In this document: in pieces, positions 39,001 to 48,000 of the stretch | How positions within the stretch are numbered: the stretch's first letter is position 1 | How the letters are laid out: every line of letters begins with the position of its first letter | NCBI RefSeq assembly: GCF_045037415.1 | Contig: NZ_CP173438.1 | From: Escherichia coli | Lineage (GTDB): Bacteria > Pseudomonadota > Gammaproteobacteria > Enterobacterales > Enterobacteriaceae | DNA length: 64,000 nucleotides | Direction: 5' to 3' (one strand) | Made by a program: the position numbers

Positions 39001-42000
39001 ATATTCTGCTTATGCTCATTGTCAGGATGGCAGGCGAATATTTCGAGATAACAAATTTTTTACAACTTGTGGCTACCTGGAGTCTGCTGATCATTCTTTC
39101 ATGCAGCGTCGGCTTAATATTCATGGTCGTTGGTAAAACCTTCCCCGAAATGCAAAAGGTTCTGCCGATACTTCTTAAGCCCCTTTATTTCATCTCCTGC
39201 ATCATGTTCCCTCTGCACTCAATTCCAAAGCAATACTGGTCATATCTACTCTGGAACCCACTAGTGCATGTCGTGGAGTTAAGCCGTGAGGCTGTTATGC
39301 CTGGCTATATTAGCGAAGGTGTGAGTCTGAACTACCTGGCAATGTTCACATTGATAACTCTGTTCATTGGTCTGGCGTTATATCGAACTCGTGAGGAGGC
39401 AATGCTGACATCATGATTAAGATTGAGAATTTGACGAAGTCATATCGCACGCCAACGGGTCGACATTATGTGTTTAAGGATTTAAACCTCGAAATCCCTT
39501 CAGGAAAAAGTGTTGCCTTTATTGGTCGTAATGGTGCGGGTAAATCAACGTTACTGAGAATGATTGGTGGCATTGACCGCCCCGACAGTGGAAAGATCAT
39601 CACTAATAAAACAATATCATGGCCAGTCGGCCTTGCAGGTGGATTTCAGGGAAGTTTAACCGGACGCGAAAACGTAAAATTTGTTGCGCGGTTATACGCG
39701 AAGCAAGAAGAACTGAAAGAGAAAATTGAGTTTGTTGAAGAATTTGCCGAACTTGGCAAGTACTTCGATATGCCGATTAAAACTTACTCATCAGGTATGC
39801 GATCGCGTTTAGGCTTTGGTTTAAGCATGGCATTTAAGTTTGATTATTATATCGTCGATGAAGTAACGGCGGTCGGTGATGCCAGGTTTAAAGAAAAATG
39901 CGCTCAATTGTTTAAAGAAAGGCATAAAGAATCTAGCTTTTTAATGGTTTCACATAGTTTGAATTCATTGAAAGAGTTTTGTGATGTGGCGCTATTCATA
40001 CCTAGAGATCATCAGACTTGTCTTTATCAGAATATTAATGACGCAATTAAGTTATATCAAAATGATGAAAATTTGAACATTTAGTGGAGCTAAAAATGCG
40101 TAAAGTTATCACCTTTGGTACATTTGATGTATTACATATAGGTCATATAAATATCTTAAAAAGGGCAAAAAAAATGGGGGACTATCTAATAGTTGGCGTC
40201 TCATCCGATTATTTGAATTTCTCAAAAAAACAGAGGTATCCTGTTTATCCGGAAACTGAGCGTCTTGAAATAATTAGGTCCTTAAAATTTGTAGATGAAG
40301 TTTTTATTGAAGAGTCATTGGAATTAAAGGGCGAGTATATTAAAAAATTTAAGGCAGATATCTTAGTGATGGGAGATGATTGGCTAGGGCGATTTGATGA
40401 ATATAAGGAATTATGTGAAGTATCATATCTGCCAAGAACTGTTGGTATTTCAACGACAGAACTAATTTCTCAAATCAAAAGATATGGTTAATTTTGGAGA
40501 GGGATTTTGAAATTTCATTCAGAGATAAAAAACTCTATAAAAAATGCGAAGAAATTCAAAGGTATTTTATTTGTTAATATAATATCTTATCTGCTGCTAA
40601 CAATTGCGATAAGAAAAGGTCATTCGAAAGAGATTTTAAAATTTAAGTGGTTGATTTTACTTTTTGGCGGGAGTGTCGCTAAATATTTTGTTGCTAGGGC
40701 TTCATTTCTTAATGGTGATTATATATTTGCTAAGAAATTATATCAAGAGATAATTAAGGTAAACCCAATACATACTGATAGCTATTATGGGTTGGCTGAT
40801 GTTTATAGACTAACCGGAAATAAATTAGAAGCGAAGGATGTACTCATTCAAGTTTTTAATTTTTCTGATCGTTTGAAAACTTGGCTATTATTGGCGAACT
40901 TGGTTGATACAAAAAAAGATTATGATGAATTATTGAATCATTGGGAAAGGGAATGTTCTTATAGGAATATACTTAAGTATCATTATGATGTGAACGATTA
41001 CCTTATAATTGCTGCGTTAAGGGCTAAACTATATGAAGAAGCATTAAATCGGGTTAAAGTATTGTTGGGAAGTATAAATTCTGAGGCTTTTATCTTACCA
41101 AAAACTAGCAATAAAAACTTTTCTGTTAATGCTGCTAAAATTGCATTATTAGGTCTAAAAAAAATATTGGATGCTAATAAAATACAGTTTTTTTTAGTTA
41201 GCGGAACATTACTTGGTTGTATTCGTGATAAAAAATTACTAAAACATGACAAAGATATTGATATAGGAGTATGGAGCGAAACAAATCTATCCGTATTATC
41301 AACGAAAATTGCTTGCTCTGGCTTGTTTGATATTGCACCTATGCGCTCACCGTATACGTTGAGAATAAAACATGTTAATGGTGTGGCAATCGACATATTT
41401 TTTCATTATCGAGATCATGACAGCTATTGGCATGCGGGTTCAAAGCTGAGATGGAACAATACTCCATTTAATTTGATTTCTTATGGTTTTCTTGGGAACG
41501 TGTTTTTAATACCAGAAAATTATGATTTATATTTGACTGAGAATTATGGAAACTGGATGCAAGAAAAAATGAAATTTGACTCTGCATTCGATACACCCAA
41601 TCATGAAATAGTTAATATGTATGAATTAAAAATACACGCGTATAAAAAGCTAATAATAAACATGAAAATTGGTAGTGTTGAAGGCGTTAGATATTATGAA
41701 GATAAATTAAATGAACTTGGGTGTATTATATCTAAGCCTTGAGGTCTATATAACTGAATATATTAAATATTAAAAAATAATCATGGGGACATAGTATGTT
41801 GTTAACTAAGTTAGCTAAAAAAATATGCCAATCCAAAGAATATATTAACGGAATTTCTCTATACAAAAAAAAAGAATGGGAGAAGGCATTATTGTTCTTT
41901 GAGAAATCAATCATAAAAAAAACAAAACATGCGGAGAGCTATTTTAAAGCAGGAATATGCAATCTTAAATTGCATAGATATGAAGAGGCATTTAAATATA

Positions 42001-45000: not shown

Positions 45001-48000
45001 ATGATAAGTTTATTTATTGTGATAATGTTCAGAATCCAGATGAGGTGATTAAAAAATCTGATGATATTGATACAAGTGGATTTATTTTTGAAAATGATAA
45101 AATCTACTTTATAACTTTGGGCAGACTTTCAGTCGAAAAAGATCAACAAAAGTTGATTAATGCCTTTTGCAGATTACAAAAATTATATCCTAATATTGAG
45201 TTATTAATTCTTGGAGACGGCCCCCTCAAGATTGATTTACAACGCCAGATTATAACTTTAGGACTTGAAAAATCCGTACATCTTCTGGGACGCATATCAA
45301 ATCCTTTTCCACTGCTAAAGAGAGCTGACTGTTTTGTCCTCTCTTCAAATCATGAAGGGCAACCTATGGTTCTTTTCGAAGCAATGATTCTAGATAAACC
45401 TATAATATCAACTGACATTACTGGTTCTAGAAGTGCTCTTGAAGGGCGTTCTGGTGTATTAGTTGAAAATAGTGTAGACGGTCTCTTCAACGGAATGCGG
45501 GACTTTATCTTGGGAAGGTTGGAGTTTAAACATTTTGACATTGAATCTTATCAAAAAAATGCTTTGTCGATGTTTTATGAAAAATGCCTTCATTAAAGCA
45601 TTAATCTATATCATGATCGTCAAGAACCATTGATTGATTTGTAAGGAGGTATACCTCCTTACAAATTAAAGTAAATTTAGTTAAGTTAATAAATAATTAT
45701 GAATAAGACAGTTTTACATATTAACAGTAATATAACCACAGATGAAATTAGTTTATTGTTGCAGGCATCCAAGTATAAATATATTCATTTTGAAATAATT
45801 GGGAAAGGTGATTCATGTAAAAATTTAATTGAGTTTTCATATCATGATTATAATTTAAAAAAACAATTAATTGCTTTAACTAATGCTGGTTTTATGTCGT
45901 ACGTTCATCGTGGAAATGTAACTTCATTGGTTCACTTTGATGAGATAAAAAACCTCTGGATTCCAGTAAAAGAAAAAAAGTTTTCTATTAATTCTGATGG
46001 GATTGTATATACGTTACAACGGGCTGCATGCAAAATAAATGAAAAGCTACTGATTGTTTTCTCTCAGATGCCAATTGAACCATATTCTGCAAGCTTGTAC
46101 AGATATTTTGCAAAAAACTTTTCTACAATTGATAAATATATTGGAAAAAATGTTTCTATATTAAGAGTGGCTGATATCGGAGGAATTACTGGCTCATTTT
46201 ACTTAAATACAAATGCATTACCAACCAATGCTGATAAAATTAAAAGCCTTATATTAGAAGTTATTGAACAATGTCAAATAAAATCAGATGATGTCGTACT
46301 TTATGGATGCTCAAAAGGAGGTACGGCAGCCGTTTATCATGGATTAACTAATAATTATAAAATAGTAGCGGTGGATCCTATATTAAATGATGAACATTAT
46401 ATAAATAATAAAAATGATCTACATTTAATAGAGGGAGTTTTTCCTCAGCCAAAGGAAGAGTTATTCAAAAAAGTCATTGATGACTATTTAATAAACTATA
46501 AGGGGAATATGTCTTATTTTATTGTTTCACAAAATTCGGAACAGTACAAATATATTATGGATATTATAAATCCAATCATCACTTATTCAACAGTTGCAAA
46601 TAGCATCAATGATAAAATTAAAAGCCATCCTGATGTTGGGCCACAATCAATTCATATGATTGTAGCAATGATTAATATGGCTCTTTCTGGAATAAAACTA
46701 TCTAACGGCATCTATGATTTTGTTTAAATAATATGGCTTTAAGATTAAATTCTGTTTTTATACTTGCGGTGATTTGCAGTATCCAAATTTGTAGCGCTGC
46801 TATTTTAAGTAAAAGCTATTCACATAATGATATTCATATCACTCTGCCATTATTATTTAATGAGTACGATGATGTACTCAGTCAGTATGACGGGGCAAAA
46901 TATTTATACCCTAGTTCATTTGCTCTTGATGATGATAATAATATTTATATTCAGTATATTTTTGAGCCAAAACAAAAGGATAATATATTAGTTTGTTATA
47001 ATAAAAAAGGAAATTACCTTGGGTACTATAAGATACCAAGTGGTGGGCGAGGCGGGGCTGGCGAAGGTTTGGCTATTATACAAGACTATAATGGGTTTAA
47101 TGTTGTATATGTCGTTTCGAATACGGGAACCTTGCAAAGATATAATATGGTGAGTAGCTTGTATGGTGACAGATTATTTAAGGAAAGAGATTTTTCAATT
47201 AATGCTTTTAACCAATTTTCGATGAGTCAAGACTATTGGCTTATTGAAGGTTATGAAAGCGAAAGAAGTATAAAGTATAGTAGAAATAGACTTGAACTAT
47301 ATTCAGTAAGTGGAGATTTATTAAGAGTAATTTATTTACAGAATAATTATTCTGGATATATTGTATCAGATGCGAGTCCTGATGCAAAGAATTATAATAA
47401 AAGACAAGGGATAGCTTTAGGTGATGGTTTTTTTGTTGCTAGTTATGGTGCCTTTTACTATTCCAAAATGGAAAGTACTTATAATACATATCAAGGCATT
47501 AGAGTTTTTGATTTTTCCGGAAAGCTTTTATCTGAAAAAATTTTCCATCCAAATGAAATGATGAATGTTCTCAAAAAAATGGGCTTAACAGTTTCTAGAA
47601 TTGAAAATGAGGGAGTGATAGTCAAGAATAATACTATTTACAGTATGTATATTTATAGTGATAGATACCATCATAAAACCTCCAGAAGTGAAGGGATCAT
47701 TATTCTACTGGATGAATTTACTCAATAAGAAATCAGACGAGTTTTCATTATATAAAAGTGATATGTTTATATGGTAAAATAATTATATGAACTAAATATA
47801 TAGGAATATATTTTTATGAGTCATATAGTTATAAAAATAAGGATTCTTGAAGGTAATGCTTTTATTCTACGTTGATAATTTAGAATAAATTATGATATTG
47901 ACTTTGATCCAAACAAAAAATCTTTATTCATACCCAATGCATTCTCAAATTTTACTCCTCCATAATAACCCCCATTAACCTGCGTCTTCACCAATAAATA

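Follow-up and report, generated by a model that had tools for sequence, protein, structure and literature searches.

Why should one gene of an Escherichia coli capsule locus encode a 1266-residue protein that joins a tetratricopeptide repeat (TPR) array to two different transferase modules, and what does such a protein make? The gene, kslC (c3694), belongs to region 2, the serotype-specific part (30% GC) of the group 2 (kps) capsule cluster, within a 64-kb stretch of E. coli DNA that is referred to here as the window. A first-pass annotation of the window had read its product as a polymerase that works processively and adds glycerol phosphate and a sugar in turn. The analysis presented here supports that reading and makes it more specific: KslC is very probably the polymerase of the K2 capsule, alternating galactose and glycerol-phosphate addition and working processively on a primer that it accepts through its TPR region. 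The K2 capsule is common among uropathogenic E. coli and those from the bloodstream, and genomes with matches to kslC include those of CFT073, ST131, and ATCC 25922. The enzyme is a candidate tool for the enzymatic synthesis of vaccine antigens and a possible anti-virulence target.

Integrity and Distribution of kslC

The open reading frame (ORF) is real and intact, as had been claimed, with 1266 codons from ATG to stop (Table 1), and its start and stop carry the same NCBI annotation in E. coli genomes that are 100% identical. The encoded protein is 100% identical to WP_000927647.1 of CFT073 (O6:K2:H1), and the identical protein is also found in a strain labelled O6:K2:H1. The gene is not new, being a published and catalogued member of the E. 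coli K2 capsule locus: c3694 has been named as a member of the CpsD-type family (Litschko 2018; PMC5974469), deletion of the ksl operon in CFT073 abolishes the K2 capsule, and kslC appears in an excerpt of the kTYPr table as GT4(1099-1238).

Whether separate TPR, TagF-like, and GT4 genes might have been fused into this composite ORF, by artefact or recently, is a fair question, since a few genomes annotate the region as two genes, a "glycosyltransferase" and a "tetratricopeptide repeat protein." In these cases, however, the DNA is 99.9% identical and the two genes trace back to length differences of 1–2 bases or to IS1 insertions, the same causes that account for the few split copies seen overall; the other records listed hold a single 3801-base gene. 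The full-length gene is present, at one place, in 140 of 5426 complete E. coli genomes. Homologues in other organisms (36–71% identity) are likewise single ORFs of 1138–1266 aa, and the one-gene architecture is kept in Pasteurellaceae, Alkalimonas, Arthrobacter, and other Enterobacterales-like loci, while the crystal structure of the homologue Cps3D is that of one chain. These comparative data already refute a fusion, to which next to no probability can be assigned, and they rule out the sequencing fusion that the first-pass annotation had named as its own refuting case.

Table 1. Features of kslC and its surroundings in the window (coordinates in nucleotides; aa, residues of KslC).
Feature	Coordinates	Strand	Basis or remarks
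ops element (38600-38607), kpsM (annotated start 38640), kpsT	38600..40084	+	ABC permease and ATPase annotated in an identical genome
Glycerol-3-phosphate cytidylyltransferase (CpsB/TagD-like), predicted CDP-glycerol supplier	40084..40491	+	TIGR01518; identity to CpsB
TPR and LicD-family protein, CpsC homologue, predicted poly(glycerol-3-phosphate) linker polymerase	40507..41742	+	Identity to CpsC; LicD-type matches
kslC / c3694, K2 capsule polymerase (very probable), 1266 aa, whole ORF	41796..45596	+	ATG-to-stop ORF
N-terminal helical region, aa 1 to ~106	41796..42113	+	Aligns to Cps3D residues 11-110; approximate boundaries
TPR superhelix, aa ~107-480, ~20 helices	42114..43235	+	Pfam TPR; model
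TagF-like glycerol-3-phosphate transferase (CgoT-like), aa ~481-862	43236..44381	+	PF04464; catalytic His604, His734
GT4 retaining glycosyltransferase (CgaT-like), aa ~874-1264	44415..45587	+	PF00534; R1110, K1115, E1187, E1195
XcbB/CpsF-family protein, putative capsule O-acetyltransferase	45699..46727	+	NF033892, E 6.5e-90
Last cassette gene (orf5), conserved, probably secreted beta-propeller	46733..47728	+	Related to phage receptor-binding proteins

Domains, Catalytic Residues, and Fold

Profile searches with Pfam, run on the protein split in two parts, bear out the three modules that had been proposed. Several TPR matches fall between aa 18 and 470, followed by Glyphos_transf (PF04464) at about aa 502–857 (E 1.2e-77) and Glycos_transf_1 (PF00534) at about aa 1099–1240 (E 1.1e-25). 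The motif NTWHGTPIKFLGKD, cited earlier as the mark of the central module, was located at aa 601–614. In this module H604 and H734 align to H444 and H584 of TagF (the corresponding catalytic histidines are H612/H743 in Cps7D and H479 in Cps3D), and in the GT4 module R1110, K1115, and E1187-x7-E1195 align to R982, K987, and the EX7E motif E1059/E1067 of Cps3D. All six residues are invariant across 44 homologues, and mutagenesis has established the catalytic role of the residues to which they align in TagF, Cps3D, and Cps7D.

The AlphaFold model (mean pLDDT 90.3) matches the solved fold of a CpsD-type polymerase, its best Foldseek hit being Cps3D (PDB 8QOY; E 7e-86, target TM 0.73); overall the two superpose with a large rmsd, which is consistent with a different position of the TPR region. 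Sequence matches point the same way, with E-values of 3e-250 for 8QOY and 2.5e-39 for TagF (3L7I). The N-terminal helical region, with a net charge of +8 over aa 1–100 and a long helix at aa 80–100 in the model, is the counterpart of the basic four-helix bundle and long helix of Cps3D. In the TPR region the model has about 20 paired helices (mean pLDDT 90). The TPR of Cps3D is aligned by KslC aa 11–354 and again by aa 407–465 in HMMER alignments; together with the helix count, these two overlapping alignments indicate that the last TPR helices are repeated in KslC. A self-BLAST of the TPR region returned no significant internal duplication at the sequence level.

The K2 Capsule Locus

The locus runs from kpsMT through five region 2 genes to kpsSCUDEF. 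Upstream of kpsM lies the ops sequence GGCGGTAG at 38600, one of 3 matches in the window, where chance predicts 1.2. Transcription presumably enters region 2 from the region 3 promoter through RfaH/ops-dependent read-through, as in other group 2 capsule loci. Scans of region 2 gave no evidence of an internal promoter or terminator near kslC, the counts being no different from those in shuffled sequences.

The first gene of the cassette bears the NCBI name "pantoate--beta-alanine ligase," which looks mistaken: its product matches TIGR01518 (E 2.7e-37, under the curated cutoff) and is 48% identical to CpsB of Actinobacillus pleuropneumoniae. The second gene, described earlier as LicD-like with a TPR-like N-terminus, does combine TPRs with LicD-type matches, which are weak (E 4e-4 for Pfam LicD and E 2.6e-10 for NCBIfam Mf1 cholinephosphotransferase), and its product shares 43% identity with A. 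pleuropneumoniae CpsC over 357 aa (E 1e-91). Downstream of kslC, the XcbB/CpsF-family protein matches PDB 9HVZ, for which an acetyl-CoA-bound form exists (E 3.5e-53), and is 36% identical to App CpsE; in an excerpt of kTYPr, the putative acetyltransferase ORF is given as frameshifted in K2a relative to K2ab.

The product of orf5 is probably a secreted beta-propeller that has relatives among the receptor-binding proteins of phages. In staphylococcal phages the relationship is to the platform with which these proteins bind wall teichoic acid, and in coliphages to the central domains of the tail spikes. For orf5 the PHROG label "glycerophosphoryl diester phosphodiesterase" was not adopted: the match covers only positions 438–732 out of 968 in the profile, another part of which may be the source of the label.

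A Cassette Lacking CpsA

Of the CpsA/CpsC pair that forms the transition pathway in A. pleuropneumoniae, which lays down a poly(Gro3P) linker joining capsule to poly-Kdo, the window holds the CpsC-type protein with its LicD and TPR parts. A tblastn search with A. pleuropneumoniae CpsA, a TagB-like PF04464 protein that primes by transferring Gro3P to Kdo, found nothing in the window (best E ~8) and no match in four related cassettes. The A. pleuropneumoniae locus used for comparison was found via its CpsC and carries a CpsD of the Cps3D type, not Cps7D. Because CpsA is absent, the priming step of the A. pleuropneumoniae model is not fully transferable to ksl.

One consequence to be weighed is that KslC itself might be a bifunctional transferase that adds the first repeat unit only, with polymerization left to another protein. 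Some enzyme must prime on poly-Kdo in a cassette without CpsA, and the PF04464 module of KslC shares its family with the primases TagB and CpsA. Yet there is no other glycosyltransferase recognizable in region 2 to take over polymerization, and the homologues Cps3D, Cps7D, Cps11D, and Bt188, which have their domain order and catalytic residues in common with KslC, polymerize alone in vitro. KslC could moreover both prime and polymerize, which would add to its reading as the polymerase more than replace it. A role restricted to priming is therefore very improbable.

The ksl-type cassette, consisting of cytidylyltransferase, TPR-LicD protein, polymerase, acetyltransferase, and probably secreted beta-propeller, is found in four other loci, where polymerase identity is 40–71%. 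It may tentatively be seen as a distinct CpsA-less variant of the teichoic-acid-like capsule pathway, with orf5 as a periplasmic binder or trimmer of the polymer, a proposal to which we give somewhat less than an even chance. If it holds, the first glycerol-phosphate on poly-Kdo would come from the LicD enzyme, from the TagF-like module of KslC, or from an enzyme encoded elsewhere.

A Model for K2 Polymer Synthesis

The reading of KslC as a processive, alternating polymerase agrees with the biochemistry shown for its homologues Cps3D and Cps7D (PMC5974469, PMC11666461), and all catalytic residues of both transferase modules are conserved. The literature searched yielded no in vitro assay of E. 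coli c3694/KslC itself, and its substrates, linkages, processivity, primer use, and monomeric state are what we infer here. CDP-glycerol would be made by the neighboring cytidylyltransferase. The GT4 module, with R1110, K1115, E1187, and E1195, would use UDP-Gal to place alpha-galactose on the free hydroxyl of the glycerol at the chain's growing end, and the TagF-like module, with His604 as the base and His734, would then transfer sn-glycerol-3-phosphate from CDP-glycerol to that galactose. Alternation of the two transfers would yield a teichoic-acid-like poly(galactosyl-glycerol-phosphate) chain. The long N-terminal TPR superhelix would allow the enzyme to use poly(glycerol-3-phosphate) as its primer and to work processively; the adjacent CpsC homologue probably makes this primer on the poly-Kdo lipid anchor of KpsS/KpsC, and the finished chain would be exported via KpsMT/KpsED.

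The K2 polymer has galactose as its sugar. Jann in 1980 and Fischer in 1982 reportedly described both galactopyranose and galactofuranose units in it. Profile and domain searches of the region 2 cassette recognized neither a UDP-galactopyranose mutase nor a second glycosyltransferase.

For the TPR region, the first-pass annotation had suggested a scaffolding or length-control role shared with the upstream protein. This comes close to what has been published for CpsD, in which the TPR is needed to elongate a poly(Gro3P) primer and for the processive synthesis of long chains; on the side of CpsC, a LicD-family enzyme, the N-terminal TPR is itself a prediction. A different role is conceivable, in which the TPR mainly docks KslC to KpsMT/KpsCS, the CpsC homologue, and the acetyltransferase rather than recognizing the primer. 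TPRs usually mediate protein–protein contacts, the CpsC homologue likewise has a TPR, and CpsA and CpsC stimulate CpsD, with mediation by the TPR left as a possibility by the authors of that work. TPR-truncated Cps3D and Cps7D, however, still elongate capsule oligomers but fail on poly(Gro3P) and become distributive even when no partner proteins are present. Docking as the main role is accordingly judged unlikely, and primer recognition remains the preferred reading, the two being not mutually exclusive.

Comparison With Known Polymerases

By its sequence, KslC is a member of the family of TagF-like capsule polymerases and, within it, of the TagF-like/GT-B (CpsD) subgroup. It has the sequence features of that subgroup: the two-His PF04464 module, the GT4 Arg/Lys pair and EX7E motif, an N-terminal TPR, and the fusion of these in the same polypeptide. 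The subgroup's activity, in which a UDP-sugar and CDP-glycerol are polymerized to a glycosyl-glycerol-phosphate chain, has been demonstrated in homologues and is predicted for KslC. Its gene also has the expected setting, in the serotype-specific region of a group 2 capsule cluster with an adjoining cytidylyltransferase of the CDP-glycerol type.

Cps3D of A. pleuropneumoniae serotype 3 (PDB 8QOY; Litschko et al. 2024, PMC11666461) is the closest solved structure and the best match in both sequence and fold. It alternately adds galactose and glycerol-3-phosphate to give the backbone 4)-alpha-Gal-(1-2)-Gro-(3-P (PMC11666461). Cps3D and KslC share their module order (helical N-terminus, TPR, TagF-like CgoT, GT4 CgaT) and their catalytic residues, although identity between the catalytic modules is only about 45%. 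The Cps3D backbone matches the galactopyranose unit reported for the K2 polymer. Cps3D is a dimer of 1138-aa chains with about 15 TPR helices, whereas KslC has 1266 aa and about 20, its TPR being longer because the last TPR helices are present twice relative to Cps3D. The loci differ as well, in that the Cps3D locus includes CpsA and the ksl locus does not.

In length and architecture KslC resembles Cps7D of A. pleuropneumoniae serotype 7 (1277 aa; also Cps2D and CszC), for which the comparison rests on the published description. Cps7D is monomeric, which has been attributed in print to its extended 20-helix TPR, and a TPR of similar length suggests that KslC may be monomeric too. In both catalytic modules c3694 is 48–49% identical to Cps7D, slightly above the value for Cps3D (PMC5974469), but the Cps7D product, 3)-alpha-Gal-(1-1)-Gro-(3-P, differs in regiochemistry from the K2 polymer. 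The catalytic modules of KslC are about equally distant from the Cps3D type and from the Cps7D clade with its different linkage, and linkage specificity is therefore not readable from sequence.

More distant systems share single modules with KslC. TagF, the wall teichoic acid polymerase of Staphylococcus epidermidis (3L7I), and TarL have the fold and the two catalytic histidines of the central module, but TagF, at about 28% identity, builds a homopolymer of glycerol phosphate on a primer linked to lipid and has neither a GT4 nor a TPR module. Bcs3 of Haemophilus influenzae type b (8A0C) is also a multi-enzyme polymerase of a group 2 capsule with a TagF-like polyol-phosphate transferase module; its other modules, however, are different (an SH3b-like domain, a ribofuranosyltransferase, and a phosphatase), it lacks a TPR, and it is 13–14% identical to KslC in the fold alignment. 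Taken together, these comparisons place the seemingly unusual three-module architecture of KslC in an enzyme family that has been described and has a crystal structure, and in which this exact gene has already been catalogued.

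Identity of kslC

The predicted K2 capsule polymerase gene kslC is a single open reading frame of 1266 codons, with GGGGA about 7 bases 5' of its ATG as a plausible ribosome-binding site. NCBI annotation of genomes with 100% identity across the gene gives identical coordinates, and the motif NTWHGTPIKFLGKD quoted in the first-pass annotation is indeed present at residues 601-614 of the protein. At the DNA level, kslC is found at full length in 140 of 5426 complete E. coli genomes, in every case as one chromosomal copy. Its carriers include CFT073 (O6:K2:H1), a strain labelled O6:K2:H1, ATCC 25922, NCTC86, and many ST131 isolates. 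A fusion artefact is ruled out: in the few E. coli genomes with two-gene annotations, the region differs by 1-2 bases or contains an IS1, and diverged relatives keep one ORF.

The accession WP_000927647.1 stands at the kslC match in both CFT073 and a 100%-identical genome. The corresponding gene of the K2 strain CFT073, c3694 (GenBank AAN82142.1), was among the TagF-like capsule polymerases that have been modelled and aligned (Litschko et al., 2018), and KslC agrees with the c3694 row of that alignment, machine-reading noise aside. Published work also shows that CFT073 loses its K2 capsule on deletion of the ksl operon. KslC has already been described, by prediction, as a member of a family with a solved structure and a known mechanism.

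Domains and Catalytic Residues

Pfam places several TPR repeats at KslC residues 18-470, Glyphos_transf (PF04464) at ~502-857 (E 1.2e-77), and Glycos_transf_1 at ~1099-1240 (E 1.1e-25). The last of these coincides with GT4(1099-1238), which is given with the name kslC in the 2026 kTYPr catalogue. Among PDB sequences, KslC matches 8QOY, the structure of the Actinobacillus pleuropneumoniae serotype 3 capsule polymerase Cps3D, most closely (E 3e-250), ahead of TagF (3L7I, E 2.5e-39), TarL, and GT4 enzymes including TarM. Residues 67-1266 were modelled with AlphaFold from an alignment of 44 homologues (34-71% identity), giving a mean pLDDT of 90.3 and a pTM of 0.87. In structural comparison the model again comes closest to 8QOY (E 7e-86, TM 0.73 on target), and its two catalytic modules match TagF and BshA-type GT4 enzymes.

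The proposed catalytic base, His444 in TagF and His479 in Cps3D, aligns with KslC His604, while His734 aligns with TagF His584. Arg982 and Lys987 of Cps3D correspond in the alignment to Arg1110 and Lys1115, and the EX7E motif formed by Glu1187 and Glu1195 has its counterparts in Cps3D Glu1059 and Glu1067. Across the 44 homologues, none of the six residues varies.

The TPR/TagF-like/GT4 architecture also occurs in a Gram-positive Arthrobacter locus (L008), where the polymerase homologue adjoins several other PF04464 proteins and a gene like orf4 (XcbB/CpsF family), and in an Alkalimonas capsule locus (L007), beside a 1687-aa LicD+GDPD protein.

The Surrounding Capsule Locus

In the E. coli window, kslC belongs to a group 2 (kps) capsule cluster. 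G+C content is ~30% across the five middle genes vs ~52% in the flanks, the usual signature of a serotype-specific region 2.

Features of the capsule locus and its borders in the window
Feature	Position	Strand	Remarks
Type II secretion remnants and IS4-family transposase ORF	33812-37466	+	right before kps locus
ops sequence	38600		immediately 5' of kpsM
kpsM and kpsT	~38640-40084	+	group 2 capsule cluster
Five region 2 genes	40084-47728	+	3' of kpsMT
First region 2 gene	40084-40491	+	TIGR01518, E 2.7e-37
kslC	41796-45596	+	ATG at 41796, stop ends at 45596
orf4	45699-46727	+	XcbB/CpsF family, 342 aa; match to PDB 9HVZ (solved with acetyl-CoA), E 3.5e-53
orf5	46733-47728	+	last gene of K2 region 2; 331 aa, hydrophobic N-terminus
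kpsS, kpsC, kpsU, kpsD, kpsE, kpsF	past region 2	-	group 2 capsule cluster
Two overlapping small ORFs	57431-58559	-	directly beyond kpsF

Transcription in group 2 loci continues from the region 3 promoter into region 2, aided by RfaH. The ops sequence GGCGGTAG before kpsM is weak evidence only, because the window holds three matches vs 1.2 expected by chance. A promoter and terminator scan of region 2 showed no difference from shuffled sequence.

The first region 2 gene is glycerol-3-phosphate cytidylyltransferase-like, and its RefSeq name, pantoate--beta-alanine ligase, is probably a mis-annotation. At one border of the locus, the transposase ORF adjoins a truncated gspK, a frameshifted gspL, and then gspM/yghD, a region annotated as pseudogenes in identical genomes. 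At the other, the two small ORFs (246 and 131 aa) occupy the site that a published study assigns to an AbiEi/AbiEii-type toxin-antitoxin pair, described in that study as upstream of the CFT073 K2 capsule genes.

Probable Mechanism by Homology

Cps3D and its serotype 7 relative Cps7D convert UDP-Gal and CDP-glycerol into poly(galactosyl-glycerol-phosphate), with the GT4 galactosyltransferase module (CgaT) and the TagF-like glycerol-3-phosphate transferase module (CgoT) acting in alternation (PMC5974469, PMC11666461). Mutants affected in only one of the two modules show complementation in trans. Both enzymes are processive and become distributive when the TPR is truncated, in which case capsule oligomers are still extended but the poly(glycerol-3-phosphate) primer no longer is. 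Two A. pleuropneumoniae enzymes build this primer on the poly-Kdo lipid anchor: CpsA, which is TagB-like, and CpsC, a LicD-family enzyme for which an N-terminal TPR is predicted.

By analogy, KslC would work with its GT4 and TagF-like modules alternating. At the level of sequence, its neighbours match the CpsB/CpsC/CpsE pathway, with 48% identity to the cytidylyltransferase CpsB for the 135-aa region 2 protein, 43% to CpsC (E 1e-91) for the TPR+LicD protein, and 36% to CpsE for the 342-aa protein. The Cps3D/Cps7D biochemistry and these matching neighbours therefore support, within the limits of homology, the first-pass reading of the ORF as an alternating, processive polymerase. Within the same limits, the TPR-truncation results favour the scaffolding or length-control role that it had suggested for the TPR.

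The K2 locus also departs from the scheme of A. pleuropneumoniae. CpsA has no homologue within the 64-kb window, nor in four related cassettes carried by other organisms (L003, L005, L013, L014), whose capsule loci hold five ksl-type genes in conserved order with polymerases 40-71% identical. In structural papers, the K2 polymer is reported to contain galactofuranose besides galactopyranose units; the K2 cassette holds neither a UDP-galactopyranose mutase nor a second recognisable glycosyltransferase. The missing CpsA and the galactofuranose question concern the K2 pathway, and the identity of the kslC ORF is unaffected.

The Genes orf4 and orf5

The orf4 protein also weakly matches the meningococcal O-acetyltransferase SacC. 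kTYPr puts the K2a/K2ab difference down to a frameshift in a putative acetyltransferase ORF; orf4 is intact in the window and is probably the O-acetyltransferase behind this difference.

The orf5 protein has no sequence matches in Pfam, NCBIfam, or PDB, and 179 representative homologues were collected. Among eight long homologues scanned, seven match phage tail-spike or tail-fibre families and one a phage tail protein family, with the orf5-like domain central in all eight. Matches in a phage collection are to tail proteins of E. coli Kayfunavirus, other coliphages, and staphylococcal phages. Typical Sec signal peptides are present at the start of stand-alone homologues. The AlphaFold model of orf5 is all-beta and propeller-like (pLDDT 91.3), and its best PDB matches are receptor-binding proteins of staphylococcal phages NF5, phi11, and 80alpha. 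Wall teichoic acid is the ligand of the propeller platform in the phi11 protein. A propeller-type periplasmic protein at the end of a teichoic-acid-like capsule operon is suggestive of a role with the polymer, and by this analogy the orf5 protein may be its periplasmic binder or trimmer.

Comparison With Cps3D and Cps7D

The catalytic modules of KslC are ~45% identical to Cps3D-type CpsD. Published matrices agree with this value and also give 48-49% identity of c3694 to the Cps7D clade, a similarity to both types that leaves the regiochemistry of KslC not assignable from sequence. In length, KslC exceeds Cps3D by 128 residues. In HMMER alignments, KslC residues 11-354 span the N-terminal region of Cps3D and its TPR in full, and the last TPR helices of Cps3D are matched a second time, by residues 407-465, with the catalytic part next. 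The model has ~20 TPR helices at residues 107-467. In Cps7D, 20 TPR helices fill the space that the TPRs of both protomers occupy in the Cps3D dimer, which its authors give as the reason that Cps7D is a monomer. The long TPR of KslC is the arrangement found in the published description of Cps7D, the basis of this comparison, and from the modelled helices we infer that KslC would likewise be a Cps7D-like monomer.
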